NCBI GenBank assembly: GCA_965199495.1
Contig: CBDASK010000003.1
Span: 4,384,001-4,448,000, forward strand
DNA: 64,000 bases
DNA from: Abditibacterium sp.
GTDB taxonomy: Bacteria; Armatimonadota; Abditibacteriia; Abditibacteriales; Abditibacteriaceae
Direction of reading: 5' to 3'
Part shown: piece after piece, positions 18,625-56,700 of the stretch
How the letters are laid out: every line of letters begins with the position of its first letter
Position numbering within the stretch: the stretch's first letter is position 1
Translations under genes and position numbers: made by a program
The notes under the pieces: model-generated
What the model saw: only the letters and a program-made list of their open reading frames with translations
Told to the model about the DNA's origin: nothing
Database searches by the model: none

Positions 18625-19410
18625 TTAATCGTGGACGTGGAAAGTTGGCGCGCCGCCGGAAGTGGCGAAGGGAGTATTCGCATGATAGATGGCTCCTCTG
18701 GGGGCACTGGCGTTGGTTCTGGCCCATTTGACGTGCCCATCGGCGAACAAGAAATTGGTGCCATCCAAATGCCGGTTCACAATGGCACTGGAGTAGACCA
18801 ACCCCGTATTACCGCCGCCCGGCGAACCGATGCTCGTGGGATCACCGTGCGAGCTGTTGCCGTTGGTGCGGTAGGCCGCCGAGCCGTTTTTGGCTTCGCC
18901 GTCCCCGTTCATAATGGTGAGCGTGGGGTACTGAACCGAGGAAAGGCTCACCGAAGTATTGCAGTTTGAAGCAGAACCACCAGCGGGCGGGTCGCTGCTC
19001 AAGTAGGCGTTATACCAGTAATCGGTATAAGAACTCGTATTTCCAGCCGGAGTTCCTACTCTGGCTATTGGATCGGCGCTGGGCGAAATGGTATCGCTTG
19101 GGCACTGGTAAATCTGCGTGCTTTTCAGATAAGGCTGAATCGCATCAGCCCATCCCACGGGCACGCCGGGAGTCTGCGTTGCGGTGCCACCAACAATGGC
19201 CAGCGCATATTTCTCGTCGTAGTCCTGCACATACTGCAATTGACCCAAACCGATCTGCTTGAGGTTGGACGAACAAGACGAGCGACGCGCGTTTTCGCGG
19301 GCGCGGGCGAAGACGGGAAACAGAATCGCCGCGAGAATGGCGATGATGGCGATCACAACGAGAAGCTCGATAAGGGTGAATGCCGAATTTTTGCGGAAAT
19401 TTGAGATCAT
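18625..19410 (-). CDS. DUF1559 prepilin-type N-terminal cleavage/methylation protein with H-X9-DG motif
   Basis: [55 protein letters not shown] and [16 protein letters not shown]. Confidence 0.93.
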
Positions 19411-19469
19411 GGGGTTTGTTCCTTATACAGAAAATTAACTGAGCAGCTTTGAATTTTCTCCATCCTGAT

Positions 19470-19485
19470 GCCCCAACGCCGGGGC
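19470..19485. promoter_or_regulatory. GC-rich palindrome; candidate operator or 5' hairpin
   Basis: (T)GCCCCAACGCCGGGGC(A), 8 nt downstream of the predicted -10 box; near-identical to 5880-5895. Confidence 0.5.
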
Positions 19486-19493
19486 ACTTTTTA

Positions 19494-19522
19494 ATTATAC
19501 CCATTTTTCCGTGTTTCCAAAC
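19494..19522 (-). promoter_or_regulatory. Putative promoter GTTTGG-N14-GGGTATAAT for the DUF1559 gene
   Basis: The minus strand reads GTTTGGAAACACGGAAAAATGGGTATAAT; spacing is identical to four plus-strand copies. Confidence 0.65.
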
Positions 19523-19540
19523 ATTTATTCGCAAATTTTA

Positions 19541-19633
19541 TCGGCCTTGAGCGTTTCGGTCGGGTTGGCGTAAGGCATCAACGTGGCGTGCCCCTGTTGC
19601 TTATTTTCGCCGATGTTAGCGGGGTCTTCGATT
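19541..19633 (-). pseudogene. 93-bp relic of the 5' part of a LacZ-type GH2 gene
   Basis: Encodes IEDPANIGENKQQGHATLMPYANPTETLKAD, versus IEDPSVIGENKQPWHATLMPYADQAEALKAD at 5649-5741; ungapped. Confidence 0.85.
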
Positions 19634-19771
19634 ATAGACGCGCTCGCGATGAAAACGGATTTAATTTCGCAATGGTAAACGCGACTAAATTTGCCCCTGC
19701 GTTGGACTATGAATTACAATTATACAAAATTATGCGTTATTCGGTGCCATTTGAACGACGCCAAAACTCAT

Positions 19772-22978: not shown

Positions 22979-23198
22979 AAATTAAAAACGTTATTTTTGC
23001 CGGGAAACGCACTATCAAACTGGAGTTGCGGCTTTCAGTACGGGCGTCGAAATTCTCATTTTCTAAAACAGTCGCAACGCAGGATTACCCCAAGTCAGGA
23101 ACTGATAACGACGTGACGCTGCAAAAATGTCCGACAAACTGCGCGGAATTAATATCGTCCGCAATTGATTGTCTCTGCGTCAGAACACTGATTACAAT

Positions 23199-23220
23199 TA
23201 TACTGAACTATCGTTAGTTC
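23199..23220 (+). promoter_or_regulatory. -10-like TATACT followed by a LacI-type operator palindrome
   Basis: TATACT-GAACTATCGTTAGTTC; the 16-mer is one substitution from a perfect palindrome with a central CG. Confidence 0.6.
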
Positions 23221-23276
23221 ACGGAGCGACAAAGAACCAGTGAGATTATCGTTCTGCTTTATATGCGATCAACGCG

Positions 23277-28483: not shown

Positions 28484-29551
28484 ATGAGTTTGAGCAAACT
28501 GGATTACTGCCAATATCTTCTGAGCAGCCCGGTCAATTACACCTTGACTAACATGGCCGCTCATGTGGAAGAGCTGTCCCATGACCGTCTCAACCGCTAC
28601 CTGCGCGGGGAGAAGCTCACCCCGCGTTTGTTGTGGGAGAACGTGCGCGAAGTTTACCAGCCGTGCGCGAGTGGGTTTATCGTGTTCGACGACACGGTGT
28701 TGGACAAGAGCTTTGGCCCCTCTATCGAGACCACGCGCAGACAATGGAGCGGCAACGCTCATGGTATCGTGCGCGGTATCGGTCTGGTCTCGTGCCTCTA
28801 TGTCCATCCCGAAACCGAGCAGTTTTGGGTCATTGACTACCGCATCTTCGACCCCGATGGCGACGGCAAAAGCAAGCTCGACCATGTCGAAGAGATGCTG
28901 CAAAGCATCAAGGCGCGGGCAATTCCGTTTCAAACCGTGCTGATGGACTCGTGGTATGCCACCAAACACCTGATGTGGACAATCGAGAACTGGCACCAAA
29001 ACACCCAACAGGAGGACAGTGCCGGTGCCGGTGCCGGTGCCGGTGCCGACAAGAAGCTGTTCTACTGTCCGCTCAAAAGCAACCGCAAAGTCGATGATAG
29101 CTTTGGTGAGCGACCTTACCGCGCGGTGAGTGAGTTGGAGTGGAGCGAAGCAGAGTTACAAACGGGCAAAAAGATCAAGGTTTATGGGTTTGCTAAAGAG
29201 TTCAAGGTGCAACTGTTCCGGGTGCCGGTTTCTTCCAGCCGCACGGACTACGTCGTGACCAACGACTTGTCTCAGGATTCCACGCAAGAGACACGAAAGG
29301 TGTGTGCCGTGCGCTGGAAGATTGAGCAGTATCACCGAGAAATCAAGCAACTCACAGGCATCGAGAGCTGCCAATGCCGCAAAGCTCGCATTCAGCGTAA
29401 CCACGTCCACTGCGCGCTTTTGGTCTGGACACGATTGACCGCCATTGCTCACCGCAATCTCACAAACGTCTACCAACTCAAGCACGGCTTGCTGCGAGAC
29501 TACCTCGTTCAACAACTCAAAAGACCTACCATCAACTTGGCTTCTGCGTAA
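28484..29551 (+). CDS. IS701-like DDE transposase
   Basis: Motifs FDDTVLDK, LMDSWYA and RWKIEQYHREIKQLTG; the stop codon lies within the right inverted repeat. Confidence 0.92.
   Translation: MSLSKLDYCQYLLSSPVNYTLTNMAAHVEELSHDRLNRYLRGEKLTPRLLWENVREVYQPCASGFIVFDDTVLDKSFGPSIETTRRQWSGNAHGIVRGIGLVSCLYVHPETEQFWVIDYRIFDPDGDGKSKLDHVEEMLQSIKARAIPFQTVLMDSWYATKHLMWTIENWHQNTQQEDSAGAGAGAGADKKLFYCPLKSNRKVDDSFGERPYRAVSELEWSEAELQTGKKIKVYGFAKEFKVQLFRVPVSSSRTDYVVTNDLSQDSTQETRKVCAVRWKIEQYHREIKQLTGIESCQCRKARIQRNHVHCALLVWTRLTAIAHRNLTNVYQLKHGLLRDYLVQQLKRPTINLASA
29019..29048 (+). repeat. (GTGCCG)5 microsatellite inside the transposase, encoding AGAGAGAGA
   Basis: Read directly from the sequence. Confidence 0.9.
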
Positions 29552-31459: not shown

Positions 31460-32416
31460 ATGGGACGAATTATCGAAGGTAGCGCACCGGAATTACGCAT
31501 GGCGTGGGGCAGTCACAATGTTTGGAAGGCCGGGCAGGAACACGAAGGGCCAGTCCACGCCCACACGATTTGGTTGCTGCTTTATGGCCACGCGCAGGTC
31601 AGCGATGGCGCGCAGACATGGGACGTGTTGCCCGGCCATATTTTGCTGTGGCCTTTCGATAAGCATCGCCATATTCGTGCGTTGAGCGATTCGGCGTGGC
31701 TCTCGATTGGAATCGCGCCTAACGCGCCGGGGCAAACTGATATTCTGCGGCTTTTGCCGTTGCCCGCCACCCATTTGTTGGAAGATGACGAAAATCGTCT
31801 GCTTCGCTCATGGTTCAGTCAGATCGTTGAACTGCGAGAAGCGCAGTCGCTGGCTTTGTTGATGGACTCGCCCCATTATGGCAATCAAGACATCACGCAA
31901 ATCCTCGGCGTGCGCCATGACATCGTCTCGCAGCGCCCGCACGAAATATGGATGGAACACGTCGTCGCCGAGCGCGCTTCTTTTTATGACATCGTCGAGC
32001 AGGGACTGGCTCAAGCCATCGTGGCGTGGTGCTGGAAAATATGGGGCAAGGGCGATTTGCAGCACGCCCTACTCGATCAGTCGCCGCCGTGGCTGCAAAG
32101 CACGCTGGAGCATATCCGCGAAAATCCTACGATTTCGGTTCACGATTTAGCGAGCGTCGCGGGTTTTAGTCCGGCTCATTTTCGCCGTTTGTTCCACCTC
32201 AATATGGGCCAGTCGCCGCGCGACTATCTGCAACACCAACGCCTCGAACTCGCCAGAAAGCTGCTCGAAACTACCGCCCTGCCCGTTTCTGCTATCGCAA
32301 CCCAGACCGGATTCGCCAGCGTGTCGCACTTCACGCAAAAATGGAAAACCGCGCACGGCTCGCCGCCTCATCAATACAGAGTGTCGCGTCAGAAACATGA
32401 AAACCGTAATTTCTAA
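31460..32416 (+). CDS. AraC/XylS family regulator, copy 1
   Basis: C-terminal double HTH (LASVAGFSPAHFRRLF..IATQTGFASVSHFTQKWK) and a cupin-like N-terminus. Confidence 0.92.
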   Translation: MGRIIEGSAPELRMAWGSHNVWKAGQEHEGPVHAHTIWLLLYGHAQVSDGAQTWDVLPGHILLWPFDKHRHIRALSDSAWLSIGIAPNAPGQTDILRLLPLPATHLLEDDENRLLRSWFSQIVELREAQSLALLMDSPHYGNQDITQILGVRHDIVSQRPHEIWMEHVVAERASFYDIVEQGLAQAIVAWCWKIWGKGDLQHALLDQSPPWLQSTLEHIRENPTISVHDLASVAGFSPAHFRRLFHLNMGQSPRDYLQHQRLELARKLLETTALPVSAIATQTGFASVSHFTQKWKTAHGSPPHQYRVSRQKHENRNF

Positions 32417-32422: not shown

Positions 32423-32495
32423 GAGCGAAAACCACTGTTTTTTGAGCTTTCTTCGTTAAATAGCGCGTTTGAAACAGCAGGAATACGGGAATACT
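32423..32495 (+). promoter_or_regulatory. AraC-type tandem half-sites plus promoter; orphan copy of 45948-46020
   Basis: GAGC at 32423 and 32444 (21 bp apart), then GTTTGA-N14-GGGAATACT. Confidence 0.55.
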
Positions 32496-37648: not shown

Positions 37649-37696
37649 AGTGCGATGTCAGCAAGGGCAGACAGGCCAAGAAATAAAAAGAGGAAT

Positions 37697-39247
37697 ATGA
37701 CCTTCAACCCCAATAATCTTCAATCGCTTCGTTTGCCGTTGAAGAAATCGGCAATGAACTCAACGGCGATTTGCGCTGTGCTTGTCGCCGGTTTCGGTTT
37801 TTCGTCTCCCTGTATGGCACAACCAATCAAAAGCCTCGTTCCCACAACCACGAATACGTCGCCCGATTATTTTTGCACATGGAATACTCAGGGTTATTCT
37901 ACGAGCTACGTCAAGGGAAAAGAGCAAGGCCAGATGAAGGACGCCATCCGGGAAAGCCAGATGTTTGGCCAAGGGCCTTATCAGAACTGGCTGGGCCAAT
38001 ATCCCAAAGTTCGAGGCGACCTCACTTTCTTGATGGACGAAGGTTGGGATTTGCCGGACGAGAAAATCATGATTCTGCCCGACAGGTTTCCGTCTTATGC
38101 CGCCGCGAGTCAGCCGGAAAGTTTTAAGAACCTCGCGGATGCCGTGAAGAACAAAGGCTGGCGCGGTCTGGGTTTGTGGATGCGGGCGGACAAACAGACC
38201 GATGAGTTTTGGTCGGAGCGTCTGCGCTGGATGAAAGCCAGTGGCGTGGATTACTGGAAAGTGGATTATGGCAATGACAGCCGCGACGAAGCGTGGCGCC
38301 ACCATTTGACCGATTTAGGTCGGGAAATAGACCCCGATTTGACCATCGAAACGGCGATGATTCCGCACGCGATCACCTGGGCAGACACCTACCGAACCTA
38401 TGACGTGGATGTGCCGCTCTCGATTCCGCAAACGCTCAGTCGCGTTGTTCCTCTGCTGGCGTTCAAAGCGCAGCCACCGACGACGGGCATCATTAACGTC
38501 GAGGACGAGATGAACATGGGTGCGGCTTTGGGCTGCGCCGTGGGCGTGATGCGCCACAGTTTTGCTGGCGATTTGCCCAACGGACGGCAGGATTTCGCGT
38601 TTCCGCCGGTGACGCGCGATGTCAAACGCTGCATGGATGAAGTCGTGCGCGCCGTTCGCTGGCATCGCATCGCGCCCGCGTTTGGCGTGGGCGCCAATAC
38701 CGTCGCTATTTCCACCGAGAATTTGACCGATAGTTTCCTCTTTCAAAAAGACGAATCGTGGCGCCACGCTGAAGGCAAAGTCGTATCGGAAACCGCTCCG
38801 GCGGCGATCACGCGCGGGTTGCCCTTGCCAACTGTGACGCTGGCGATTGGCGAAGTCAAACCCTTCGTCGTCGCTTCGCGCAACCCCAATGGCGCCGTGA
38901 GCGTGGCGACGTTGGGACGAACCCTTGGCTCAACCGCCGAGGCTCGCCAGTGGGTGACCGGCGCCGTGGCTGATGTCGCGCTGCCAGTCGGCGAGAATGC
39001 CGGGCCAATCGGCATCTTTGGCCGCTACCATTCTCTGACGCTCACTTTCGACAAACCCATCGCCGGACACCAGATACTGGCGCAGGATTTGGCCGGTGAA
39101 GAAGCCGAGGACATCACCAAGCTCGTTTGGATTGCGGGCAACCAAATCGTGATTCCCGGCAGCGTGATCGACCGCGTCGGTCTGAGTGCGGCCACGCCGG
39201 GCGATAACTCCGAGCCGGGTCTGGTGCTGGTTGTTCGCAACCATTGA
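37697..39247 (+). CDS. Secreted clan GH-D-like (GH27/36-related) TIM-barrel hydrolase, family unassigned
   Basis: YFCTWN, LMDEGWD, VDYWKVDY and YRTYDV parallel the clan-D motifs; AAGAGGA lies upstream of the ATG. Confidence 0.7.
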   Translation: MTFNPNNLQSLRLPLKKSAMNSTAICAVLVAGFGFSSPCMAQPIKSLVPTTTNTSPDYFCTWNTQGYSTSYVKGKEQGQMKDAIRESQMFGQGPYQNWLGQYPKVRGDLTFLMDEGWDLPDEKIMILPDRFPSYAAASQPESFKNLADAVKNKGWRGLGLWMRADKQTDEFWSERLRWMKASGVDYWKVDYGNDSRDEAWRHHLTDLGREIDPDLTIETAMIPHAITWADTYRTYDVDVPLSIPQTLSRVVPLLAFKAQPPTTGIINVEDEMNMGAALGCAVGVMRHSFAGDLPNGRQDFAFPPVTRDVKRCMDEVVRAVRWHRIAPAFGVGANTVAISTENLTDSFLFQKDESWRHAEGKVVSETAPAAITRGLPLPTVTLAIGEVKPFVVASRNPNGAVSVATLGRTLGSTAEARQWVTGAVADVALPVGENAGPIGIFGRYHSLTLTFDKPIAGHQILAQDLAGEEAEDITKLVWIAGNQIVIPGSVIDRVGLSAATPGDNSEPGLVLVVRNH

Positions 39248-39340: not shown

Positions 39341-40441
39341 ATGAAACTCAACTCTTCTTCTCATCTCCAAAAACTGGTCGCCGTGACAATTGCGTCCTCC
39401 ACCCTTTTCGCGGTCACTGACCGCGCTCATGCCTTCACCAGTGCCGATGCCGACACCGCTGTGGACGCCTATCTCAAGAATTTTGTGCGCTCGGAAGGCG
39501 AAAACTCCTTCATCAAGGGCAAACAGGACGGCGGCAATACGGGCTTCTGGCAGGAAATCGAACAAGTCGAGGGCATCGAGGACGCCAATGACCGCACCGG
39601 TGGCGCCTACAAAACTCAGGTGACCGCTCTGCTCAACGGATTCATCAAGGAACATGGCAGCAATTGGTCAAACAACGACTTCAACGATGACATCTCCTGG
39701 GCCGTCATCGCTTATGTGCGCGGCTATCGGGCGACGGGCGACAAAAAGTTCCTCAACATCGCGCAAAGCAACTTCGATATGATGTTCGCGCGCGCTTGGG
39801 ATCCGGCTAAGGGCGCGCTTTTTTGGAAGACTGACAACAAAAGCTACAACTCCTGCATCGAGTGTCCGGCGGGCATCGCCGCCTTTTTGCTCAGTCAGGA
39901 ACTCAAGGATTCGAGCTACGAAACCAGAGCGCGCAACCTCTACAACTGGAACAAAGCGAATTTGTTCGATGCCCAGACCGGCGCGGTGTTGGATTCGGTC
40001 AGCACAGCCGGCAAAATGAACACTTGGTCGAGCACCTATAATCAGGGGACATTCGTCGGTCTGGCCAACTTTCTGGGCGAAACAGCCACCGCGAAGCTGG
40101 CGGCGGACTACACCATGAACAAGATGGGCAAAGCCAACGCGAGCGGGTTTATGATCCTGCCGCAATACAACGCGGGCGGCGGCGACCTCGCGGGCTTTCA
40201 TTCCATCGGACTGCGCTGGATTTCCAAGTTCATGAAAGATAACAAGCTGGAAGCCACCTATTTGCCGTGGTTGCAGGCCAACGCCGATGCCGCATGGGAG
40301 ATGCGGCGCACTTCGGATAATCTGGGATGGAATCGCTGGCTCGAACCTACGCCCCAAAACGACGTGCTGCATTCGTGGGATGCCATCAGCACGATGGTGG
40401 CATTGCAAGTCGTGCCTACTGATAAAAAACCCCAACCTTGA
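39341..40441 (+). CDS. GH76 alpha-1,6-mannanase family protein
   Basis: Motifs FNDDISW (catalytic DD) and TYNQGTFVG; signal peptide. Confidence 0.9.
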   Translation: MKLNSSSHLQKLVAVTIASSTLFAVTDRAHAFTSADADTAVDAYLKNFVRSEGENSFIKGKQDGGNTGFWQEIEQVEGIEDANDRTGGAYKTQVTALLNGFIKEHGSNWSNNDFNDDISWAVIAYVRGYRATGDKKFLNIAQSNFDMMFARAWDPAKGALFWKTDNKSYNSCIECPAGIAAFLLSQELKDSSYETRARNLYNWNKANLFDAQTGAVLDSVSTAGKMNTWSSTYNQGTFVGLANFLGETATAKLAADYTMNKMGKANASGFMILPQYNAGGGDLAGFHSIGLRWISKFMKDNKLEATYLPWLQANADAAWEMRRTSDNLGWNRWLEPTPQNDVLHSWDAISTMVALQVVPTDKKPQP

Positions 40442-44984: not shown

Positions 44985-45941
44985 ATGGGACGAATTATCG
45001 AAGGTAGCGCACCGGAATTACGCATGGCGTGGGGCAGTCACAATGTTTGGAAGGCCGGGCAGGAACACGAAGGGCCAGTTCATGCCCACACGATTTGGTT
45101 GCTGCTTTATGGCCACGCGCAGGTCAGCGACGGCTCACGAATATGGAAAGTGCGTTCCGACCATATTTTGTTGTGGCCCTATAATAAGCATCGCCACATT
45201 CGCGCGCTGAGCGATTCGGCGTGGCTCTCGATTGGAATCGCGCCTAACGCGCCGGGGCAAACTGATATTCTGCGGCTTTTGCCGTTGCCCGCCACCCATT
45301 TGTTGGAAGATGACGAAAATCGTCTGCTTCGCTCATGGTTCAGTCAGATCGTTGAACTGCGAGAAGCGCAGTCGCTGGCTTTGTTGATGGACTCGCCCCA
45401 TTATGGCAATCAAGACATCACGCAAATCCTCGGCGTGCGCCATGACATCGTCTCGCAGCGCCCGCACGAAATATGGATGGAACACGTCGTCGCCGAGCGC
45501 GCTTCTTTTTATGACATCGTCGAGCAGGGACTGGCTCAAGCCATCGTGGCGTGGTGCTGGAAAATATGGGGCAAGGGCGATTTGCAGCACGCCCTGCTCA
45601 GTCAGTTTCCGCCGTGGCTGCAAAGCACGCTGGAACGTATCGGCGAAAACCCCACGCTTTCAGTTCACGATTTAGCGCGCATCGCGGGCTTTAGCCCCGC
45701 CCATTTTCGCCGTTTGTTCCACCTCAATATGGGCCAGTCGCCGCGCGACTATCTGCAACACCAACGCCTCGAACTCGCCAGAAAGCTGCTCGAAACAACT
45801 TCGCTCCCGATTTCCGCCATCGCAACCCAGACCGGTTTTGCCAGCGTGCCGCACTTCACGCAAAAATGGAAAACGGCGCACGGCTCGCCGCCGCATCAAT
45901 ATCGTTTGTCGCATCACAGAGCAGAAACACGGAATTTCTAA
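44985..45941 (+). CDS. AraC/XylS family regulator, copy 2
   Basis: Near-identical to 31460..32416 and the same length (318 aa); GAGGA lies upstream of the ATG. Confidence 0.92.
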   Translation: MGRIIEGSAPELRMAWGSHNVWKAGQEHEGPVHAHTIWLLLYGHAQVSDGSRIWKVRSDHILLWPYNKHRHIRALSDSAWLSIGIAPNAPGQTDILRLLPLPATHLLEDDENRLLRSWFSQIVELREAQSLALLMDSPHYGNQDITQILGVRHDIVSQRPHEIWMEHVVAERASFYDIVEQGLAQAIVAWCWKIWGKGDLQHALLSQFPPWLQSTLERIGENPTLSVHDLARIAGFSPAHFRRLFHLNMGQSPRDYLQHQRLELARKLLETTSLPISAIATQTGFASVPHFTQKWKTAHGSPPHQYRLSHHRAETRNF

Positions 45942-45947
45942 AACGAA

Positions 45948-46020
45948 GAGCGAAAACCGTTATTTCATGAGCTTTACCCGTTAAATAGCGCGTTTGAAAT
46001 AACGGTATTGAGGGAATACT
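45948..46020 (+). promoter_or_regulatory. AraC-type tandem half-sites plus promoter for the DUF1559 gene
   Basis: GAGC at 45948 and 45969 (21 bp apart); GTTTGA at 45992, then N14 and GGGAATACT. Confidence 0.6.
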
Positions 46021-46051: not shown

Positions 46052-46870
46052 ATGCAATATACACAACAATCTCAAATTCTGCAACGTGATAGAAGAAATT
46101 TTTCAGCCTTCACACTTATCGAGCTTCTCGTTGTGATCGCGATCATCGCCATTCTCGCGGCGATTCTGTTTCCTGTTTTCGCGCGTGCCCGTGAAAACGC
46201 ACGGCGCAGTTCGTGCCAATCGAACTTGAAGCAAGTTGGGCTGGCATTTTTGCAATATAGCCAAGATTACGACGAATATTGTGTTCCGATTCGCAATGGC
46301 GGTGGCAGCACTTCTTTTCACTGGGCTTGGCATATCATCATGCAGCCTTATGTCAAGAGCCGTCAGATTTTCGTGTGCCCCAGCAATACTACGGATGCTC
46401 TTGGTCAACCAAGCCTGTTGTCTTACACTTATAACCTGCACGCGGGTGGCCCCAATGCTCCAAGAACTCTGGCTTCGATTGTCAACAGCGCGCAAATGCC
46501 TGTGGTGATCGATGCTTCTGGAACTTCCCTTCCTAATCGGGCGCACTTGGTAAACGTTCTGGATGCGAACAGACAACGCGGACGCAAAACCGACTGCGAC
46601 AACGAGGGACAATGCCCTGGCGGAGCTGGCGATTCCCTCGGCGCCACCATTAAAGCTTTGACGCACTTCGATGGCGCGAATTACCTTTTTGTGGACGGCC
46701 ACGTCAAGTTTTTTCGTGCCGTCGTTGGAACTACGACGGCACCACTGCCTTATGTTGGTGGTGTGCCTGCAACTTCCAGCCCCCAATTTCTCGCTTCACC
46801 GCCGAGACTCGGCATAGATTGGGATGGCGATGGCATTGTTGGTGACAGTTCGGATAACATTTGGAAGTAA
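46052..46870 (+). CDS. DUF1559 prepilin-type protein with H-X9-DG motif
   Basis: [15 protein letters not shown].., YSQDYDE, CPSN and [16 protein letters not shown]. Confidence 0.93.
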
Positions 46871-46956
46871 TAGACCGAGCCAGCACCCCCGGCCTTTATT
46901 GGGTCGGTGCCCCTTGAGTTACGGCATGACTCTGCTGTGATTCGGGTGACAACCGT

Positions 46957-47014: not shown

Positions 47015-48706
47015 ATGTCATCAGTCCAACCCTCCACGCAACCAAGTGACGCGATTAACGACTCCGCATCACCAAAAGGACGTTTGGCTTCGGTGGGCCG
47101 TTATCGCTGGGTTATCTGCGCGCTGTTATTTTTCGCCACCACGATCAACTATGTTGACCGTCAGGTGCTGGGCATTATCGCGCCGACTCTGCAAAACGGC
47201 CCCGCGCTGTTCACGCCCGCGATGATTGACGACGCGCCCGCGTTGGCGAGCGCGCTGCAAACACCAGCCACGCCGACTGCGCGTTTAATCCAGTCGCGGC
47301 TTTCGCCTGCGACAATTGCGGCCTTGGGCAACAGTCAGGGCGACGCGCTCAAGACCGCGTTATCCGACGATCTCAACCGCATCGCGGCAGGCGCGCCGCT
47401 TTATAGTGCGGCGAGTTTCGACCGCGCGCAGTTTTCGGCGCATTTGCAGGGACAGCTCGAAAAGTATCAGAAAAAACCGCCCAAAGGCGAAGAAGCCACG
47501 CGCATCAATCACTGGATTATCGAGGAATCGTTCCCCAAAGCTATCGTCACCAGTCTGCGCTGGAGCGACGTGGAATACGGCTATATCAATTCGGCGTTCT
47601 CCTTCGCTTATGCCATTGGAATGCTGCTCGTCGGCGGATTGTTGGATCGGTTCGGCGTGCGCATGGGCTATGCTGCGGCGCTTGTCGTGTGGAGTCTGGC
47701 GGCGATGGGACACGCGTTCGCGGGTTCGGCGTTTAGTTTTGGCGTGGCGCGTTTTGCTCTCGGTCTGGGCGAATCGGCCAACTTTCCCGCCGCGATTAAA
47801 ACCGTCGCCGAGTGGTTTCCCAAGAAAGAACGCGCGCTCACGACCGGCATTTTCAATTCCGGCTCCAATATCGGCGCCATCGTCGCGCCGGTCGCCGTTC
47901 CGGTTATCGCGCTGGCTTACGGCTGGCGCGAGGCGTTCGTTATCACCGGTTTGTTGGGATTGTTGTGGCTCTTTTTCTGGCTGCCGATTTACCGCGAACC
48001 CGAAGAGCATCCCAAAGTTTCGCCCGCAGAACTCGCTTACATTCGCAGCGATCCGGCTGACCCGCAGGAGAAGATTGGGTGGGGACAATTGTTGGGTTAT
48101 CGCCAGACGTGGGCGATTCTGGTGGGCCGCATGATGACCGAGATTCCGTGGTGGTTTTATCTGTTCTGGGGCGCGAAATTTCTCGATACGCAATTCGGCG
48201 TCAGCCTGAAACAGGTCGGCTTGCCGCTCATCGTGATTTACGTGATGGCCGATGTCGGCAGCATCGGCGGCGGCTGGCTGTCATCGGCACTGCTCAAGCG
48301 CGGTTGGAACGTCAACGCCGCGCGCAAAACCGCGCTTTTGGTGTGCGCGCTGTGCGTGTTGCCGGTGACGTTCGCGCCTAAAGTCGGCAGTCTGTGGGGC
48401 GCCGTGGCTCTGATCGCGCTGGCGGCGGCGGCGCATCAAGGTTGGTCGGCGAACTATTTCACGCTCGCTTCGGATATGTTCCCGCGCCGCGCGGTGGCTT
48501 CAATTGTCGGCATCAGCGGCTTTTTCGGCGCGATGTCGAATGTCGTCGGCCAAGCGGCGATTGGTAACGTGTTGGACAAAAACGGTGGCAACTACACGCC
48601 GATTTTCGCGCTGTGCGGCATCGCGTATCTGGCGGCAGTAGGCGTGGTGCATTTTATGGCGCCCAAACTCGAACCCGCGCAAGTGCGGGCAGTTCGCGAT
48701 TCGTAG
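47015..48706 (+). CDS. exuT: MFS hexuronate transporter (ExuT-like) with a ~118-aa insertion after TM1
   Basis: Motifs RYRWVICALLFFATTINYVDRQ, GESANFPAAIKTVAEWFPKKERA and AAHQGWSAN. Confidence 0.88.
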   Translation: MSSVQPSTQPSDAINDSASPKGRLASVGRYRWVICALLFFATTINYVDRQVLGIIAPTLQNGPALFTPAMIDDAPALASALQTPATPTARLIQSRLSPATIAALGNSQGDALKTALSDDLNRIAAGAPLYSAASFDRAQFSAHLQGQLEKYQKKPPKGEEATRINHWIIEESFPKAIVTSLRWSDVEYGYINSAFSFAYAIGMLLVGGLLDRFGVRMGYAAALVVWSLAAMGHAFAGSAFSFGVARFALGLGESANFPAAIKTVAEWFPKKERALTTGIFNSGSNIGAIVAPVAVPVIALAYGWREAFVITGLLGLLWLFFWLPIYREPEEHPKVSPAELAYIRSDPADPQEKIGWGQLLGYRQTWAILVGRMMTEIPWWFYLFWGAKFLDTQFGVSLKQVGLPLIVIYVMADVGSIGGGWLSSALLKRGWNVNAARKTALLVCALCVLPVTFAPKVGSLWGAVALIALAAAAHQGWSANYFTLASDMFPRRAVASIVGISGFFGAMSNVVGQAAIGNVLDKNGGNYTPIFALCGIAYLAAVGVVHFMAPKLEPAQVRAVRDS

Positions 48707-48796
48707 AGACACCGATTTATCGTGTCTAAAACGTAAATGAACTCGTAAATTTAGTGGGGTATGAACGTTTTAGACACGATAAATCGGTGTCTCTAC
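48703..48796. repeat. GTAG-type REP doublet whose GTAG supplies the MFS stop codon
   Basis: GTAGAGACACCGATTTATCGTGTCTAAAACGT ... ACGTTTTAGACACGATAAATCGGTGTCTCTAC. Confidence 0.9.
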
Positions 48797-48825
48797 AACA
48801 GCAAATTCCCATCTATAAAAAAACC

Positions 48826-51615
48826 ATGCGATTTTTATCAACCCTAATACTTTTATTGACCGTTATCGCCACTGCGCTGGCCGCTCCGACGCAACGGCAA
48901 TATCTGTCGGGCACCGACAAAGATCACACAGTCGCGTGGCAATTTTCGGTTTCGACGGGCCGTAATAGCGGTCAGTGGAGCACGATTCCCGTTCCGTCGA
49001 ACTGGGAAACCAAAGGTTTCGGCAATTACACTTCGGGCGACCGGCCCAAAAATCCCGAAACCGGGCTTTATAAAACCAATTTTACCGTGCCGAATTCGTG
49101 GCGCGGCCAGCACATTGACATCGTTTTCGAGGGCGCCATGACCGACACTTCGGTGAAAATCAACGGAGCCACGGCGGGGCCGACGCATCAGGGCGGGTTT
49201 TACCGGTTTCACTACGACATCACTCCGCTCATCAAATTCGGGCAATTGAATACGCTCGAAGCGACGGTGGATAAAGTTTCCGCCGATAACTCGGTCAATC
49301 GCGCCGAGCAGCAGGGCGACTATTGGAGTTTCGGCGGCATTTATCGCCCGGTTTATCTGGCGGCGCGGCCCGCCCAATCTATCGAACGCGTGGCGATTAA
49401 CGCGCAGGCCGATGGCACTTTTGCGGCGGATGTGACGCTCGATGGCGTCACGGACGCCGACGTTTTGGCGGCGCAAGTGCAAACCTTAGAGGGCAAACCG
49501 GTCGGCGTGGCTGTATCGGCGCGCGTTACGCCCGGCCAGACGAGCGCAACGCTTAACGCGAAGATTAATGCGCCTTTACAGTGGACTGCCGAAACGCCGA
49601 ATTTGTATCAAGCCGTGATTCAACTGGGGCGCGGCAAACGCGAAATTCATCGCATAACGCAGCGCTTCGGCTTTCGCACCATCGAAGTGCGCGAGGGCGA
49701 TGGCATTTACGTCAACGGGCGCAAGATTATGTTGAAAGGATCGGATCGGCATTCGTTCTGGCCCGAAAGCGGGCGCACGACCAGCGCGACGATTAACCGC
49801 GACGACATTCTGCTGATGAAGCAGATGAACATGAACGCGGTGCGGATGTCGCACTACCCGCCCGACGTTGATTTTCTCGATTCGTGCGACGAGTTGGGAC
49901 TTTACGTTTTGGATGAAATCGCGGGCTGGCAGAAAAAATATGACACGCCCATCGGTAAAAAAATCGTCAGAGAAACCGTGTTGCGCGACGTGAATCATCC
50001 GTCCATTTTGTTCTGGGACAACGGCAACGAAGGCGGCTGGAACACCGAGTTGGACGACGATTACGCGCTCTACGACCCGCAGAAACGCCATGTTCTGCAT
50101 CCGTGGATGCTGTTTCGCGGCATTGATACCGGACATTACAAAACGTATAACGGCACGCGCGATTTGCTCGATAAAAACAACATCGTGATGCCGACCGAGT
50201 TTTTGCACGGCCTTTACGACGGCGGCGCGGGCGCGGGTCTGGACGATTACTGGAACTTGATGCAGAGCCGTCCTCTGGCGGCGGGCGGTTTCATCTGGGC
50301 GTTTTTGGACGAGGGTTTGGTGCGCGACGACCAAAACGGCGCCATTGACGTTTTCGGCAATCGCTATCCCGACGGCATTCTGGGGCCTCACCGCGAGAAA
50401 GAAGGCAGCTTTTACACCATCAAAGACGTTTGGTCGCCGATTCAAATCGGCAGCCGCGATTATTACGAAAAGCAGTTTCCCGATGCTTTCAATGGCGAGG
50501 TTTCGCTCGATAATCATTATTCGTTTACCAACGCCAGCCAGTGCAGTTTCGCTTGGAAATTGGTGAATTTTCCGGCGCCCGATGGCAAGAGTTCGGCAAA
50601 TATCGTCGTGGCGCAGGGCCGCGCGCCCAGCCCACAAATCGCGCCGGGCGCGAGCGGCAAGTTGAGCCTGAATTTGCCCGCCAACTGGCGCAATTCCGAT
50701 GCGCTTCAATTGAGCGCGAGCGATCCGACTGGGCACGAACTCAACCGCTGGATGTGGCCGATCAAGCGCGCGTCAGATTTTGAGAGTCGCATCGTCGCCC
50801 GCTCCAATGCAGCCACGGCGCCCGTGGCTGCGACGCAGGACGCGGATAACTTCGTTTTGACGGCGGGCCAAACCGTCGTCAGCATTAGTAAAAGCACGGG
50901 ATTAATTGCGCAAGTGCAACGCGGCGGAACGGCTGTCGGGCTGGACAACGGGCCAACGCTTGCGGCTTCGTCGCCGACGCAAAACGAATTGAAAAGCGTG
51001 ACGAACCAAACCGACGGCAGTGCGCAAGTTGTCGAGGCGACGTTTAGCGGAAATATGAACTCGATTCGCTACGAGTTGCAGCCAAACGGTTGGCTTGGGG
51101 TGAGTTACAAATATAATCTCACAGGCGCGCAGGATTACATGGGCGTGAGTTTCGACTTGCCCGAAAAGCAGGTTCAGGGCATCAAATGGCTGGGTGTGGG
51201 GCCATACCGCGTGTGGAAAAACCGGATGCGGGGCGGCGAAATCGGCGTGTGGTCGAAGGCTTACAACGACACCGCGACCGGCGCCGACACCTGGAATTAT
51301 CCCGAATTTAAGGGCTATTACGCGCGCACTTACTGGGCGAAATTGCAAACCACAAACGGGCCAATTACGGTCGTGACGCCCGACGAAAACCTGTTTTTGC
51401 GGCTTTACACGCCGCGCAACGGCCCCGATCCCAAAGGCGCGGAAGCGAAATTTCCTGCGGGCGACATCTCGTTCTTGGACGGCATCGCGCCCATTGGCAA
51501 CAAGTTTCACAGCGCCGACGCGACCGGGCCACAGGGGGCGCCCAACGACGCCAAAGGCGATACCGCGCACACGCTTTTCTTCTATTTTGGCGAGCCAACT
51601 TCCGCGCCACGATAG
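48826..51615 (+). CDS. GH2 beta-galactosidase-like, secreted
   Basis: Start at MRFLSTLI. Motifs DYWSFGGIYRPV, NAVRMSHYPP, WDNGNEGG and PTEFLHG. Confidence 0.9.
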   Translation: MRFLSTLILLLTVIATALAAPTQRQYLSGTDKDHTVAWQFSVSTGRNSGQWSTIPVPSNWETKGFGNYTSGDRPKNPETGLYKTNFTVPNSWRGQHIDIVFEGAMTDTSVKINGATAGPTHQGGFYRFHYDITPLIKFGQLNTLEATVDKVSADNSVNRAEQQGDYWSFGGIYRPVYLAARPAQSIERVAINAQADGTFAADVTLDGVTDADVLAAQVQTLEGKPVGVAVSARVTPGQTSATLNAKINAPLQWTAETPNLYQAVIQLGRGKREIHRITQRFGFRTIEVREGDGIYVNGRKIMLKGSDRHSFWPESGRTTSATINRDDILLMKQMNMNAVRMSHYPPDVDFLDSCDELGLYVLDEIAGWQKKYDTPIGKKIVRETVLRDVNHPSILFWDNGNEGGWNTELDDDYALYDPQKRHVLHPWMLFRGIDTGHYKTYNGTRDLLDKNNIVMPTEFLHGLYDGGAGAGLDDYWNLMQSRPLAAGGFIWAFLDEGLVRDDQNGAIDVFGNRYPDGILGPHREKEGSFYTIKDVWSPIQIGSRDYYEKQFPDAFNGEVSLDNHYSFTNASQCSFAWKLVNFPAPDGKSSANIVVAQGRAPSPQIAPGASGKLSLNLPANWRNSDALQLSASDPTGHELNRWMWPIKRASDFESRIVARSNAATAPVAATQDADNFVLTAGQTVVSISKSTGLIAQVQRGGTAVGLDNGPTLAASSPTQNELKSVTNQTDGSAQVVEATFSGNMNSIRYELQPNGWLGVSYKYNLTGAQDYMGVSFDLPEKQVQGIKWLGVGPYRVWKNRMRGGEIGVWSKAYNDTATGADTWNYPEFKGYYARTYWAKLQTTNGPITVVTPDENLFLRLYTPRNGPDPKGAEAKFPAGDISFLDGIAPIGNKFHSADATGPQGAPNDAKGDTAHTLFFYFGEPTSAPR

Positions 51616-51653
51616 CGCGCGGAAACTCGCACATCGCATTAGTTACAGTTACA

Positions 51654-51737
51654 TAACTCTCTTTGCTTGTCATTCTGAGCGTTCGTGCCTTCTGCCCAGA
51701 GGGCGCCCACGCTCAGAATGACAAGCAAAGAGAGTTA
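51654..51737. repeat. 29-bp perfect inverted repeat with GTCATTCTGAGCG/CGCTCAGAATGAC core
   Basis: TAACTCTCTTTGCTTGTCATTCTGAGCGT / ACGCTCAGAATGACAAGCAAAGAGAGTTA. Confidence 0.8.
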
Positions 51738-51744
51738 CCTTTTT

Positions 51745-53337
51745 ATGAAACGTTCTTCCCGATTTCGATTCGCGCCCGCGCTGTTGGCGGGCGCCGTGGC
51801 TGTTATGGGCTGCGGCCTCTTAACCCCGATTTTCGCGCAAACGACGGCGCCGCCTGCGGCGACGGCGAATCTTGCCCTGAGCGGCGAATATAATGTGCGC
51901 GCGTTTGGCGCGCGCGGCGATGGCAAAGCGCTCGATACTGACGCGATTAACCGCGCGATGGCGACGGCTTCGGCGGCGGGCGGCGGCACAGTTCTGGTGC
52001 CCGCCGGAACTTATCCGTGTTTGTCGTTGCACCTCAAAAGCAATATCCGCCTGCATCTCGACGCGGGCGCCGTGCTTTTGGCCGCCGAGCGTACCGAAAC
52101 GCAGCGCTACGACGCGCCCGAACCCAATGCCTCGACCAAATTTCAGGACTTCGGGCACAGCCACTGGCAGGACGGCTTTTTGTGGGGCGAGAATCTGGAA
52201 AACCTCACCATAGATGGGCCGGGCGAAATTTATGGCAAAGGCTTGGTCAAGGGCGACTCGAAGTTAGAGGGCACCGGCAATAAAGCGATTGCTCTGAAAA
52301 ATTGCCGCAACGTCAACTTCAGCGACTTCACGATTCGGCACGGTGGTTGGTTCGGTATTCTGGCGACGGGCGTGGACAATTTCACGCTCGACAATTTGAA
52401 GATTGACACCAATCGCGACGGCATGGACATTGACTGTTGCCGCAACGTGCGCCTTTCCAATTGCAGCATCAACTCGCCCAACGATGACGGGCTGTGCCTG
52501 AAAAGTTCCTACGGATTGAACGAGGCGCGCGCGACCGAGAACGTGACTATTACGAACTGCTTCGTAAGCGGCTACGACGAAGGCACGGTTTTGGACGGCA
52601 CGCGGCAATATCATCCCGAACGGGCGCCGAGCGGTTCGCCGCAGGGTCGCATCAAGTTCGGTACGGAATCGAACGGTGGTTTCAAGAACATCACGATTTC
52701 CAACTGTATCTTCGATCATTGTCGCGGTCTGGCGCTCGAAACCGTGGACGGCGGATTATTGGAAGACGTGACGATCAGCAACATTACCATGCGCGACATC
52801 AGCAACGCGCCGATTTATCTGCGTCTGGGCCGCCGGATGCGCGGGCCAGACGGCGCGGCTGTCGGCGAGCTGCGGCGCGTCAATATCTCGAACATCGTGG
52901 CTTATAACGTCGATCCCAAATCGTGCGTCATCATCAGCGGCATTCCCGATCACCATATCGAAGACGTTACGCTTTCCAACATTCAGATTTGGTATCAAGG
53001 CGGCGGCACGGCAGAGCAAGCCAACCTCGTGCCCAAGGAAGACGAAAGAGGTTATCCCGAACCGGAATTTTTGGGCATCATGCCCGCTTACGGATTTTAT
53101 CTGCGCCACATCAAAGGCATTACGCTTGATAATATCCAGTTGCATACTTTGTCCGCCGATGCGCGCCCGCCGCTTGCGCTGAGCGACGTGGTGGGCGCCG
53201 AATTCTTCCGCGTCAAAGCCGATAAAGCCGAGCAAACGCCGGTTTTCGCCATCAAAGATTCGTCGGATTTGACGATTCGCATGGTCAAAGGTGCGCAGGA
53301 TAAAGAGCAAAAAGAGCTTTATCAGGACAACTTTTGA
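51745..53337 (+). CDS. GH28 family protein, paralog C
   Basis: Start at MKRSSRF. Motifs DFGHSHWQ, TNRDGMDID, NDDGLCLKS and RIKFGTES. Confidence 0.9.
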   Translation: MKRSSRFRFAPALLAGAVAVMGCGLLTPIFAQTTAPPAATANLALSGEYNVRAFGARGDGKALDTDAINRAMATASAAGGGTVLVPAGTYPCLSLHLKSNIRLHLDAGAVLLAAERTETQRYDAPEPNASTKFQDFGHSHWQDGFLWGENLENLTIDGPGEIYGKGLVKGDSKLEGTGNKAIALKNCRNVNFSDFTIRHGGWFGILATGVDNFTLDNLKIDTNRDGMDIDCCRNVRLSNCSINSPNDDGLCLKSSYGLNEARATENVTITNCFVSGYDEGTVLDGTRQYHPERAPSGSPQGRIKFGTESNGGFKNITISNCIFDHCRGLALETVDGGLLEDVTISNITMRDISNAPIYLRLGRRMRGPDGAAVGELRRVNISNIVAYNVDPKSCVIISGIPDHHIEDVTLSNIQIWYQGGGTAEQANLVPKEDERGYPEPEFLGIMPAYGFYLRHIKGITLDNIQLHTLSADARPPLALSDVVGAEFFRVKADKAEQTPVFAIKDSSDLTIRMVKGAQDKEQKELYQDNF

Positions 53338-53388
53338 TTTCCGGCACTGCCAAAAATCTTGCGAGCGCGCCGATTGCTCCCGAACATT

Positions 53389-54420: not shown

Positions 54421-54504
54421 AATCGGCAGATTTTTGATGAGATCGAGATATTGATGATATAATTTTCGGTGGAGCCAAATACCGGTATCTTAGCTTTTTG
54501 GATT

Positions 54505-55569
54505 ATGAATGAGAGCAAAACCCTGATGCCCAAAGCGCGCGCCCGGCGGCGCAAAAGCGAGAGCGTGACGCTTCAAAATATCGCGGATCGCGTGGGCGTT
54601 CATGTGATGACGGTTTCGCACGCGCTCAAGGGCACCGGGCGCGTGGCTGATGCCACGCGCACGACAATTCTGGGCGTCGCCGCCGAGATGAACTACAAGC
54701 CCAATCGCGCCGCGCGCGCTCTGGTCACTGGCAGAACCGGCGCCGTCGCCGTGCTGACCGGCCCGGTTAGCGAGCATTTTTACGCGCACGCCCTGCACCT
54801 GTTGGAACACGAATTGGAAGCCGACCAAATCCAGATGGTTTTTACGCGCGCCCGCGACGGTCAGGGCGACTTTGAAACGATGCTGCAATCGGGCATGGTG
54901 GACGGCGTGATCGCCATTGACGCCTTTTCGGAACTGCGCGCGCTTTCCAAAATTTCGAGTTTCGCTCTGCCCTGCGTTTACGCGGGCGTTTTGCGCCCGG
55001 AACTCGCGCCCTCGCTGTCGGTGGACAGCATCGCCATTGACCTGAGCGGCGCCGCGCGCGAAGCCGCGCAATCGCTTCTTGATCTGGGTTGCGCGCGCAT
55101 CGCTTATCTGATTTCTAACGAAGGCATGAGCAATCCCGAAGATGTGCGCGCGCGCACCTACCTCGACACGCTGCAAAACGCGGGACGAACGCTGGAAATC
55201 ATCAACGTGAACATCGGCACCGATACTTCATGCCGCGAACTGACGCGCAGTCGTTTGCGAGATTACATCCAGCGTAGCGGCGCGCCCGACGGTTTACTGT
55301 GCCAAAACGACGAAATGGCCATCGCCGCTTACCGCGCGCTCCGCGACCTGAACCTGCGCGTGCCCGAAGACGTGCGCCTCATCGGTTGTGACGGACTGGA
55401 CGACATGGAGTATTTCGATCCGCCGATCTCGACGCTGGTGCAGCCGATAGAGGAAACCTGCGCGCTCGCGTGGAGATTTCTGCAACGCCGCCTTGCTAAT
55501 CCCGATTTGCCGCTGCAACACGCCGTTTTGCAAGCCCAACTGCGAAAACGCCCCTCGATGGCGCGCTAA
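54505..55569 (+). CDS. LacI family repressor
   Basis: VTLQNIADRVGVHVMTVSHALKG..NYKPNRAARALVTGRT. Confidence 0.92.
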   Translation: MNESKTLMPKARARRRKSESVTLQNIADRVGVHVMTVSHALKGTGRVADATRTTILGVAAEMNYKPNRAARALVTGRTGAVAVLTGPVSEHFYAHALHLLEHELEADQIQMVFTRARDGQGDFETMLQSGMVDGVIAIDAFSELRALSKISSFALPCVYAGVLRPELAPSLSVDSIAIDLSGAAREAAQSLLDLGCARIAYLISNEGMSNPEDVRARTYLDTLQNAGRTLEIINVNIGTDTSCRELTRSRLRDYIQRSGAPDGLLCQNDEMAIAAYRALRDLNLRVPEDVRLIGCDGLDDMEYFDPPISTLVQPIEETCALAWRFLQRRLANPDLPLQHAVLQAQLRKRPSMAR

Positions 55570-55741
55570 ATTCATGCGCCCTTTATAACGCGCGCGAACA
55601 GAGCAGCCACCGCCATAGACCACGGGCATAGACGCATTGACTTGGCGGTGTTTTCTGAGCAAAAGCGCGTTGTCATGTGCTTCATTTCGATTTCCGGCGC
55701 GGCGGCATACCCGCGCACCTAATAATTTTTTTCTATTTAAT

Positions 55742-55783
55742 GTTTGAAAACCAGTCGAGTTGGGTATACTAATCTAACGTTAG
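55742..55783 (+). promoter_or_regulatory. Promoter GTTTGA-N14-GGGTATACT plus perfect LacI-type palindrome CTAACGTTAG
   Basis: Lies between the two LacI genes and the DUF1559 gene; the palindrome starts 3 nt after the -10 box. Confidence 0.7.
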
Positions 55784-55826
55784 CGCAAATGAGTGTAAAT
55801 AGGATTTTCGGCGCCAGCGTATCACC

Positions 55827-56642
55827 ATGAAAAATATCCACACACACAACCAAAAAGCAAATCAAGCCTTCACGCTTATCGAGTTGTTGGTCGTCATCGC
55901 GATTATTGCTATCTTAGCGGCCATCTTGTTTCCGGTTTTCGCTCGTGCCCGCGAAAACGCGCGCCGTTCGAGCTGCATGAGCAACTTGAAGCAGTTGGGT
56001 TTGGGCATGATGCAATACACGCAAGATTACGACGAGAAATATCCTTGCCCCGGCGAAACCAGCTACAATGGCGAAAATCGCAATAACGATGGTTCGGCCA
56101 AGCAAGCTTCGTGGCGCCAGAAGATTTATCCTTACGTCAAAAGCACGCAACTTTTTTCCTGTCCGTCCAATACCCATAATGCCGACATCGCTGATGTTGG
56201 TGCGCCGGGAGTTGCGGGTTCGCCCGTGCCTCAAATGCCGGTGTCTTATATGATCAATTATAACCTCTATGTATCGCCGGGTGGTTATCAAGGATTGAGC
56301 ATGGCTCAGATCGATCAAGCCTCAACGCGCATCGCTATTGCCGAGGGCGGCGCCGACGGTTGGAATTGGACGGCATTCTCTCCGGGTTGGGGCACAAACA
56401 TCGCTGGTCGCGCTTTCGCCGGACATTTGGGCACGTTCTGTCTGGTTTATGCCGACGGACACGCCAAGGCCAAGCGCCCCGCCACAACTGCGCTTCCCTT
56501 AAACGAGTGGGGGCGCGGCGTTCTCTACAGCAACGACGGAAGCTGTGACGCCTATATCGCTGCCAATGCAATAAACTGCGCGAACCCAACGCCCACCGTT
56601 ACGGCGTATATGCAGGCAGTGGAACAGAAATATCCCGCGTAA
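55827..56642 (+). CDS. DUF1559 prepilin-type protein with H-X9-DG motif
   Basis: [15 protein letters not shown].., YTQDYDE, CPSN and [15 protein letters not shown]. Confidence 0.93.
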
Positions 56643-56656
56643 TCTCTCTCGGTTGC

Positions 56657-56700
56657 CGCGCAAAGTCGGCGCTCTGTTTCAGAGTCGCCGACTTTGCGCG
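56657..56700 (+). terminator. Long hairpin after the DUF1559 gene (weak terminator or mRNA stabiliser)
   Basis: CGCGCAAAGTCGGCG...CGCCGACTTTGCGCG, with a poor U-tract. Confidence 0.65.

Follow-up and report, generated by a model that had tools for sequence, protein, structure and literature searches.

In Abditibacterium, prepilin genes of the DUF1559 family are enriched at the head of sugar-regulated operons for carbohydrate-active enzymes (CAZymes), both genome-wide and in relatives, and the motif that precedes many of them is a distinct predicted promoter class shared across the family Abditibacteriaceae. The analysis concerns a stretch of 64,000 nucleotides (C3:4384001-4448000; hereafter, the window) from a 4.81-Mb genome (G000) that is 95% complete and in which 4022 genes were called with a dicodon model of our own. 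Close homologues carry the labels Abditibacteriota, Abditibacteriaceae, or Abditibacterium, and the gene content (LpxC, secretins, and TonB receptors) indicates a diderm cell. The window forms part of a CAZyme island at about 4.35-4.49 Mb of contig C3, with glycoside hydrolase (GH) genes of families GH2, 27, 28-like, 32, 67, 92, 97, 106, and 115. An earlier note, made from the letters of this stretch, had proposed that pilin genes lead CAZyme operons there and encode glycan-specific subunits of a filament that captures or imports polysaccharide in place of SusCD. The design is real and recurrent, narrower for the protein family than the earlier note had it and wider in regulation; what that note overlooked is that the shared motif represents a separate, predicted family-wide promoter class. 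This promoter class and the link between DUF1559 and glycan genes outside the Planctomycetota-Verrucomicrobiota-Chlamydiota (PVC) phyla are what is new: the literature searched, which has few subscription journals and excludes supplements, yielded no description of CAZyme operons headed by a pilin or of a GTTTRA/GGG-TATAMT promoter.

The window holds three intact prepilin-DUF1559 genes, as had been claimed, at 18625-19410 (minus strand; pilin 1), 46052-46870 (plus strand; pilin 2), and 55827-56642 (plus strand; pilin 3). All three score above the Pfam cut-offs for N_methyl (PF07963; 33.5-34.8 bits, cut-off 21.2) and SBP_bac_10/DUF1559 (PF07596; 50.2-51.4 bits, cut-off 23.3). The common prepilin N-terminus, with the class III signal A|FTLIE, and the C-terminal H-X9-DG (H-X9-DGH) motif are present in each, and the closest sequence matches in the Protein Data Bank are pilin N-termini. 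The shared motif was located in front of every intact gene as a predicted promoter, with a GTTT-type -35 element, GGG, and a TATAAT -10 element before pilin 1 (19494-19522, minus strand) and corresponding sites before pilin 2 (45992-46020, plus strand) and pilin 3 (55742-55770, plus strand). Likewise, a terminator-like hairpin lies 3' of pilin 1 (18565-18596, minus strand), two lie 3' of pilin 2 (46884-46947, plus strand), and a strong one lies 3' of pilin 3 (56658-56699, plus strand); genome-wide, hairpins 3' of pilins have a median of -22.2 kcal/mol (28 pilins), compared to -12.9 for 200 controls (p=0.013). Pilin 1 heads two GH28-like genes, a GH2 gene, and a nitronate monooxygenase gene. 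Behind pilin 2 lie genes for a major facilitator superfamily (MFS) transporter of the D-galactonate/hexuronate type, a GH2, and a GH28-like protein (47015-53337, plus strand), as well as two LacI genes, and the cargo of pilin 3 consists of GH97 and SASA-type acetylesterase genes (56694-60614, plus strand). Each pilin is the first gene after its own promoter, but a co-oriented GH2, AraC (44985-45941, plus strand, 5' of pilin 2), or LacI gene (54469-55569, plus strand, 5' of pilin 3) precedes it.

The different candidate operators assigned to these promoters fared unequally. A TGCCCC-N6-GGGGCA palindrome just past the -10 element of the pilin 1 promoter (19469-19486) has three copies in C3, all directly after a class promoter; the other two are at C3:4457649 and C3:4461379, and the latter adjoins a LacI gene. 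The palindrome CTAACGTTAG at 55774-55783 spans the predicted start site of the pilin 3 transcript and is a candidate LacI-type operator; in the three orthologous loci of pilin 3 (L166-L168), the candidate LacI palindrome, ATGCTAACGTTAGCAT, is retained 5' of the orthologous pilin, and in all three a LacI gene lies directly 5' of that pilin. Upstream of pilin 2, GAGC direct repeats 21 bp apart (45948-45977, plus strand) are weakly suggested as an AraC site by a duplicate of the AraC gene and promoter in the window that is 93% identical over 1041 bases. The duplicated AraC gene (31460-32416) is followed by a fourth class promoter (32467-32495, plus strand) with no pilin next to it; the next gene, at 32994, is a GH28 gene. 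A further TGCCCC...GGGGC palindrome, at 5879-5896 between divergent GH2 and GH67 genes, suggests one regulon with pilin 1.

A profile search of the genome yielded 47 prepilin-DUF1559 genes in 39 loci, eight proteins with a DUF1559 core but no prepilin signal, and two related pilins in the pilus operon described below. One upstream and two downstream neighbours of at least 90 amino acids (aa) were scanned against Pfam and counted by hand for the 39 loci and for 40 random control genes, which leave out pilin neighbours and the window and thereby lower the control CAZyme rate in favour of the contrast. The first co-oriented downstream gene encodes a CAZyme, sulfatase, or esterase at 13/39 loci compared to 0/40 controls (p=3e-5), and at 7/29 compared to 0/40 outside the island at 4.36-4.48 Mb (p=0.0014). 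Such a gene occurs among any of the three neighbours at 18/39 loci compared to 4/40 controls (p=4e-4), or at 15/36 when the window is removed (p=0.003). A regulator of the LacI/AraC/XylR type is the upstream neighbour at 11/39 loci and at none of the 40 controls. More than half of the family loci have no CAZyme neighbour, and the family as a whole is therefore not a glycan module, contrary to the broader proposal; a third to half of it is tied to glycan genes. At the loci without CAZymes, the neighbours range from genes of sugar catabolism through a PepSY-TM gene and CusF/DJ-1 genes to housekeeping genes.

The promoter motif, GTTT[ACG][ACG]R-N13-GGGWAWAMT, reads as a GTTTRA -35 element, a 17-bp spacer, and a TATAMT -10 element with GGG before it (GTTTRA-N14-GGG-TATAMT). 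There are 32 copies in C3 compared to 1 and 0 in two shuffles, 30 of them with one spacer. Sixteen are directly 5' of a pilin gene, five of a LacI/GntR-type regulator gene, three of a CAZyme gene, and one of an ATP-binding cassette (ABC) binder gene; one more precedes a pilin at 734 nt, and six precede other genes. The tRNA promoters differ (CTTGAC-N17-TAWAAT), no -35 signal was visible in a generic -10 logo made from genes other than pilins, and relaxed intergenic matches favour an AAT/ACT tail (31/78). A CRP/FNR-like activator model for the motif was rejected, as no second half-site was found in 102 aligned sites, which show only phased A-rich tracts near -41 and -52.

The pattern was derived from pilin upstream regions, which makes the counts in its own genome partly circular, and it was therefore tested in other genomes. 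It was found in 12/12 relatives of the same genus (3-49 sites) and in 15/18 family members, with 0-1 matches for reversed controls; beyond the family, 12 genomes have 0-4 sites. In a genome of the same family (G012), 40 of the 43 sites were taken, excluding one at a contig start and two inside other stretches, and two sites (L098 and L099) serve one unit. A pilin is the first or second gene at 26/40 (17 with the pilin first, eight with LacI and then the pilin, and one with an esterase and then the pilin), and the rest comprise five sites with LacI but no pilin in the first three open reading frames (ORFs) and nine others. The 37 cargo genes of this genome include 15 named GH, polysaccharide lyase (PL), or carbohydrate-binding module (CBM) genes, six more that are likely glycan-active by our own reading, and four genes for tetratricopeptide repeat (TPR) proteins. 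In a second genus (G015), the pilin is first at 13 sites and second at nine, that is, 22 of the first 30 of 60 sites, with 1.5-kb flanks. A third genus (G016) has no strict motif and instead a GG[T/A]TATAAT variant, with a pilin directly next at 11 of 16 sites hand-picked from 26; 10 of these 11 have GGT or GGA in place of GGG. Relaxed-pattern sites in G023 have no pilin next to them (0/4), and G014 and G018 contain H-X9-DG genes and lack the strict motif. Across 19 family genomes, site counts follow H-X9-DG counts with a Spearman coefficient of 0.81, or 0.68 per Mb, kin not being independent. Loci such as L166-L168 possibly come from genomes that are also in the genome set and are not counted as independent.

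One further target recurs. Four genomes, from three genera, encode a zinc-ribbon protein with a single transmembrane segment behind a class promoter (C3:313393-314190, minus strand; L118, L147, and L233); the protein appears to be a conserved regulon member and is a candidate feedback regulator.

Which sigma factor reads the motif can be narrowed. A group 1/2 sigma is the probable reader, because TATAMT is fixed, because of the variant in G016, and because no site precedes the rsbV-like gene. A SigB-like sigma is considerably less likely, and any other reader is improbable. The motif, as GTTTRA-N14-GGGTAT, literally fits the Bacillus SigB consensus GTTTAA-N15(+/-2)-GGGTAT given in the available part of one report (PMC9847131), with matches in G000, G012, and G015, and a sigma of the SigB/F/G family is encoded in the genome beside RsbV/RsbW-like genes. 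In addition, the accessible text of another report describes a group 3 sigma, SigF, that drives pilA1 in Synechocystis (PMC2532724). In contrast to SigB/SigF, the third G varies in G016 while TATAAT stays, no motif match was found 5' of the rsbV-like gene, where an autoregulation site was looked for, and pilin, LacI, and CAZyme genes take the place of the stress genes targeted in the SigB regulon. The family has two group 1/2 sigmas, a strongly diverged RpoD orthologue (C3:4551974-4553230; L086), with divergence in regions 2.4, 3.0, and 4.2, and a shorter protein (C3:1593243-1594130; L088) that keeps canonical residues, region 4.2 included, is nearly identical across two genera, and may have taken over the housekeeping role. 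A third candidate reader lies at C3:2889327. Assignment by presence and absence failed, as the RpoD orthologue and the SigB-like sigma each occur in 28/31 genomes, including motif-less ones, and a residue comparison, with 6/20 sigma loci lacking usable sequence, was only suggestive. Separately, a SigB/F-like sigma at C3:3358904-3360382 (L083) carries a 200-aa C-terminal extension.

The machinery that a filament would need is encoded elsewhere in the genome. PilB, PilT, PilC, PilD, four pilin-like genes, and two PilX-like giants form one operon (C3:861101-871xxx), and PilM through the secretin form a second (C3:2697947-2706842), in which the genes in the PilN/O/P position have no Pfam match. 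By gene content, a type IVa pilus machine is present. The genome also has additional PilB, PilC, PilT-like, and secretin genes and two Tad-like loci, for a total of three PilT-like ATPases and at least six secretin genes. Three secretin genes stand in tandem at C3:931419-936789 (L198) with no other pilus or secretion genes close by, and a second PilB-like ATPase is encoded three genes 3' of a pilin that has a class promoter and the same orientation (C3:1314920-1319674). N_methyl has 48 matches, 44 in DUF1559 genes and four in the pilus operon, one of which matches the family profile at positions 3-214. No short classical major pilin is among these 48 matches, and a filament would therefore be built either from DUF1559 proteins or from a 291-aa operon gene product.

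No SusD (PF07980) was found in the 95% complete genome, with a positive control, and there is no tandem susC-susD pair. Three TonB receptors are encoded beside TonB-ExbBD, a VIT1 iron gene, and unrelated genes, none next to a CAZyme gene; relatives have 0-6 TonB receptors but, within the family, 14-150 H-X9-DG matches. The statement that the window lacks TonB receptors, SusD, and ABC binding proteins agrees with the 36 window proteins scanned. The description of these operons as free of SusCD and ABC importers agrees with the genome-wide search as regards SusD but fails for ABC importers, two of which, both for sugars, are encoded 28-37 kb beyond the end of the window (C3:4475975-4485117, at the right edge of the island), directly behind another DUF1559 pilin and a class promoter. 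One consists of a periplasmic binder, an ATPase, and a permease, the other of an SBP_bac_1-permease fusion and a permease. The MFS transporter in the window and these ABC importers would account for the inner membrane only.

Structure prediction suggests a pilin-like fold for pilin 3. The AlphaFold model, built on a 120-sequence alignment (pLDDT 93.6, pTM 0.86), has a 51-residue N-terminal helix (residues 17-67) and a small alpha/beta head, with the H-X9-DG region in a two-strand hairpin (203-216). The best 12 VIA structural rows are all type IV pilins or pseudopilins, with modest Z from 5.2 to 3.4 (best 6xxd, Z 5.2, root-mean-square deviation 3.5, 122 aligned), and EpsG, PulG, and ComP are among the matches. 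Foldseek returned nothing at E <= 0.001 for this model, and the ESM Atlas returned unnamed look-alikes only. Identity over residues 15-70 is about 91% even when distant paralogues are compared. The middle, which the earlier note had called hypervariable, is so between paralogues, with a 24% median in distant matches for residues 116-199, but six orthologues of pilin 3 retain 58-80% identity there. The LacI-pilin-GH97-esterase module is kept together with its operator in the three orthologous loci, where the pilin is 74-77% and 58% identical, compared to 55-66% for its neighbours, and is thus as conserved as the enzymes or more. For this reason, the conserved orthologue heads fit a partner-specific head better than antigenic drift.

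The observed layout is a class promoter, an optional LacI or AraC gene, a pilin, a hairpin, and then enzymes or transporters. Tentatively, and with somewhat less than even confidence, we take the subset of pilins at operon heads to be sugar-induced, swappable pilus subunits for polysaccharide capture. A dedicated group 1/2 sigma would read the promoter, with the local regulator adding sugar specificity, and the hairpin would keep the pilin message far above the enzyme messages. PilD would cleave the prepilin, and, from what is known of the protein families, the PilB/PilT/PilC/PilM/secretin machine would assemble a retractile filament. Hypothetically, the head would bind a glycan and retraction deliver it to secreted enzymes, the products entering via the inner-membrane MFS and ABC importers. 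In the most far-reaching form of this reading, Abditibacteriaceae would feed on polysaccharides by means of a retractile type IV pilus; a dedicated sigma factor, together with the sugar regulator of each operon, would decide which DUF1559 pilin, out of dozens, forms the subunit for a given glycan, and retraction would draw the bound polymer up to a secretin or through it, in place of SusC/SusD. This version, drawn by analogy with DNA-uptake pili, in which a pilus stands in place of a DNA receptor as it would here in place of SusC/SusD, is unlikely to be correct in full.

A number of observations weigh against polysaccharide capture by swappable subunits. The link to enzymes is incomplete: when the island is removed, the any-neighbour comparison is not significant (8/29 compared to 4/40, p=0.10), 21/39 loci have no CAZyme in the three neighbours, and among the 12 CAZyme-type units of the window, within which the share of pilin-headed operons was counted, four have a pilin as their first gene (in one case just beyond the window), one begins at the relic described below, and seven at neither by our own count. 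The pairing of pilin and cargo between G012 and G000 held in three comparisons (L100, L105, and L111) and failed in three (L102, L119, and L126). Tryptophan plus tyrosine is not higher in CAZyme-linked heads (5.8% compared to 7.0%, p=0.09, with 7/47 pilins dropped because the anchor motif was missing). All structural Z values are below 8, and neither a lectin nor a CBM fold appears among the VIA rows listed, although such a fold may still be present. The true major pilin could instead be encoded by the operon gene at C3:867671, and the eight proteins without a prepilin signal indicate that the DUF1559 domain can function outside a pilus.

The last point bears on the possibility, not a probable one, that single subunits anchored in the inner membrane are periplasmic binders or sensors of oligosaccharides and other solutes, in the manner of solute-binding proteins, with no filament. 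Genes for ABC binding proteins, too, typically come first in their operons with a hairpin after them. The operons with a pilin at the head also include MFS, ABC, sugar-isomerase, copper, and PepSY-TM ones, eight Sec- or transmembrane-anchored proteins have the same core, and a CusF-linked pilin head is the most methionine-rich of 40 measured (5.3%). In the part of the source available, DUF1559 was earlier described as a solute-binding family (PMC2754498). Nevertheless, the near-identity of the N-terminal 56 residues in distant paralogues is what packing into one filament would lead one to expect, the predicted fold resembles that of pilins and not that of binding proteins, and the N_methyl matches contain no separate short major pilin.

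Equally doubtful is the view that these are general surface pilin variants, serving adhesion or escape from phages or predators, whose strong promoter suits secreted proteins, so that enzymes accumulate behind heads without glycan specificity. The 21 loci without CAZyme neighbours, the three failed cargo pairings, and the lack of aromatic enrichment would all follow from it, as would the 10 label changes that CAZyme-linked pilins need on a quick tree of 49 pilins, in which 23/46 inner branches are open. It is difficult to reconcile with orthologue heads that are conserved as well as or better than the neighbouring enzymes, with conserved candidate operators of the sugar type on the pilin promoters themselves, and with class promoters that also precede LacI and CAZyme genes without a pilin.

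Least probable is that the proteins are type II secretion-style pseudopilins, adaptors that export co-encoded enzymes via one secretin: most downstream enzymes have signal-peptide-like N-termini (read by eye), secretin genes number at least six, with three in tandem lacking other machinery, second PilB and PilC copies exist, and the structural matches include EpsG and PulG, but the cargo behind several pilins is cytoplasmic or located in the inner membrane (arabinose isomerase, MFS, and ABC), many secreted CAZymes have no pilin, and three PilT-like ATPases point to retraction.

Several members of the family and features of the window were recorded in addition. Two DUF1559 pilins head DJ-1/YHS and CusF genes (C3:4606847-4608378, L041; L100); the methionine content of one of the two hints at copper binding, and the pair of pilin and DJ-1/YHS recurs in G012. 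Three DUF1559 pilins lie 5' of a PepSY-TM gene (C3:2782109-2785800; L029), a position often occupied by TonB receptor genes, and five short, diverged ones are arrayed behind one class promoter at C3:2965445-2968400. The eight DUF1559-core proteins, in which the core follows either a Sec-like signal or a simple membrane anchor and some of which have an additional N-terminal domain, are encoded at C3:244767, 384773, 404099, 404725, 1085997, 1275809, 1922914, and 1927235. In the window, the relic that had been noted is real; with coordinates of 10649-11077 (minus strand), it repeats the last third (3' end) of the pilin 1 gene together with its hairpin and leader (83% identity to 18411-18838, 351/421 aligned bases), has no signal peptide, and is frameshifted by one additional base at the DG motif. 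Contigs of run X1, possibly the source sample, have no indels across 5700-11500, with a contig break at the relic frameshift. They also match the window where the GH67 gene is split into two ORFs, an N-terminal domain (5928-6503) and the remainder (6543-8315). A GH106 gene at the window end (61725-64000, minus strand) is headed by another DUF1559 pilin just beyond it (C3:4449790-4450527), with a divergent AraC gene. A DDE transposase gene (28484-29551) lies between GH115 and GH32, and three probable secreted proteins without a Pfam match (8403-10382, 37655-39247, and 39341-40441) are candidate new glycan enzymes within the island. An Rfam scan of the window gave 0 matches.

More generally, DUF1559 is a very large family, with at least 7997 database matches for one query, and its tie to glycan use outside PVC now has a second line of evidence in a promoter class by which pilin, regulator, and CAZyme genes can be predicted in other genomes. 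The motif can serve as a tool to find uncharacterised glycan enzymes in Abditibacteriaceae, and the arrangement bears on polysaccharide handling in diderm bacteria that have few TonB receptors.

The portions of four papers available present DUF1559 as an expanded family of unknown function (PMC10632474, PMC2754498, PMC5352709, and PMC8567305), with 68 paralogues in Planctopirus, function unknown (PMC10632474), and 91 genes in Tuwongella that are evenly spread and often flanked by signal-peptide genes (PMC8567305); planctomycete N_methyl+SBP_bac_10 proteins were recovered in SDS-soluble and Triton fractions (PMC8567305). The DUF1559/SBP_bac_10 (PF07596), H-X9-DG (TIGR04294) prepilins described here have the same domains and likewise form a large paralogous family; in contrast to the PVC families, they lie outside the PVC phyla, are concentrated in a CAZyme island, and are tied to sugar regulators and a promoter class. 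No link of the family to CAZyme operons was found in the accessible DUF1559 literature, and the available text of two papers on planctomycete polysaccharide use does not contain the word 'pilin' (PMC11685898 and PMC11131199). The closest precedent, as far as the accessible part of that report goes, is the MUL2 locus of Akkermansiaceae, for which pilin-like proteins were proposed to mediate attachment to complex glycans (PMC13174399). MUL2 is one four-gene locus with PilM and one pilin, MUL2A, which is archaeal-pilin-like and was compared with the DUF1559 pilins by description only, whereas here there are dozens of DUF1559 pilins, one per operon, away from the machine.

In Bacteroidota, SusC/SusD loci combine a regulator, a variable envelope protein in first position, and an enzyme set for each glycan. 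As judged by domains, the Abditibacterium operons resemble them in the co-location of CAZymes with a sugar-type regulator; they differ in that there is no SusD and no CAZyme-linked TonB receptor, and a pilin is not a channel. Type IVa pili can carry ligand-binding pilins, such as ComP in DNA uptake. The prepilin signal, the long helix with a small head (predicted here), and the PilB/PilT/PilC/PilD/PilM/secretin machine are common to both systems, but in place of one major and a few minor pilins, Abditibacterium encodes about 45 putatively interchangeable subunits of 200-280 aa that are separately regulated.

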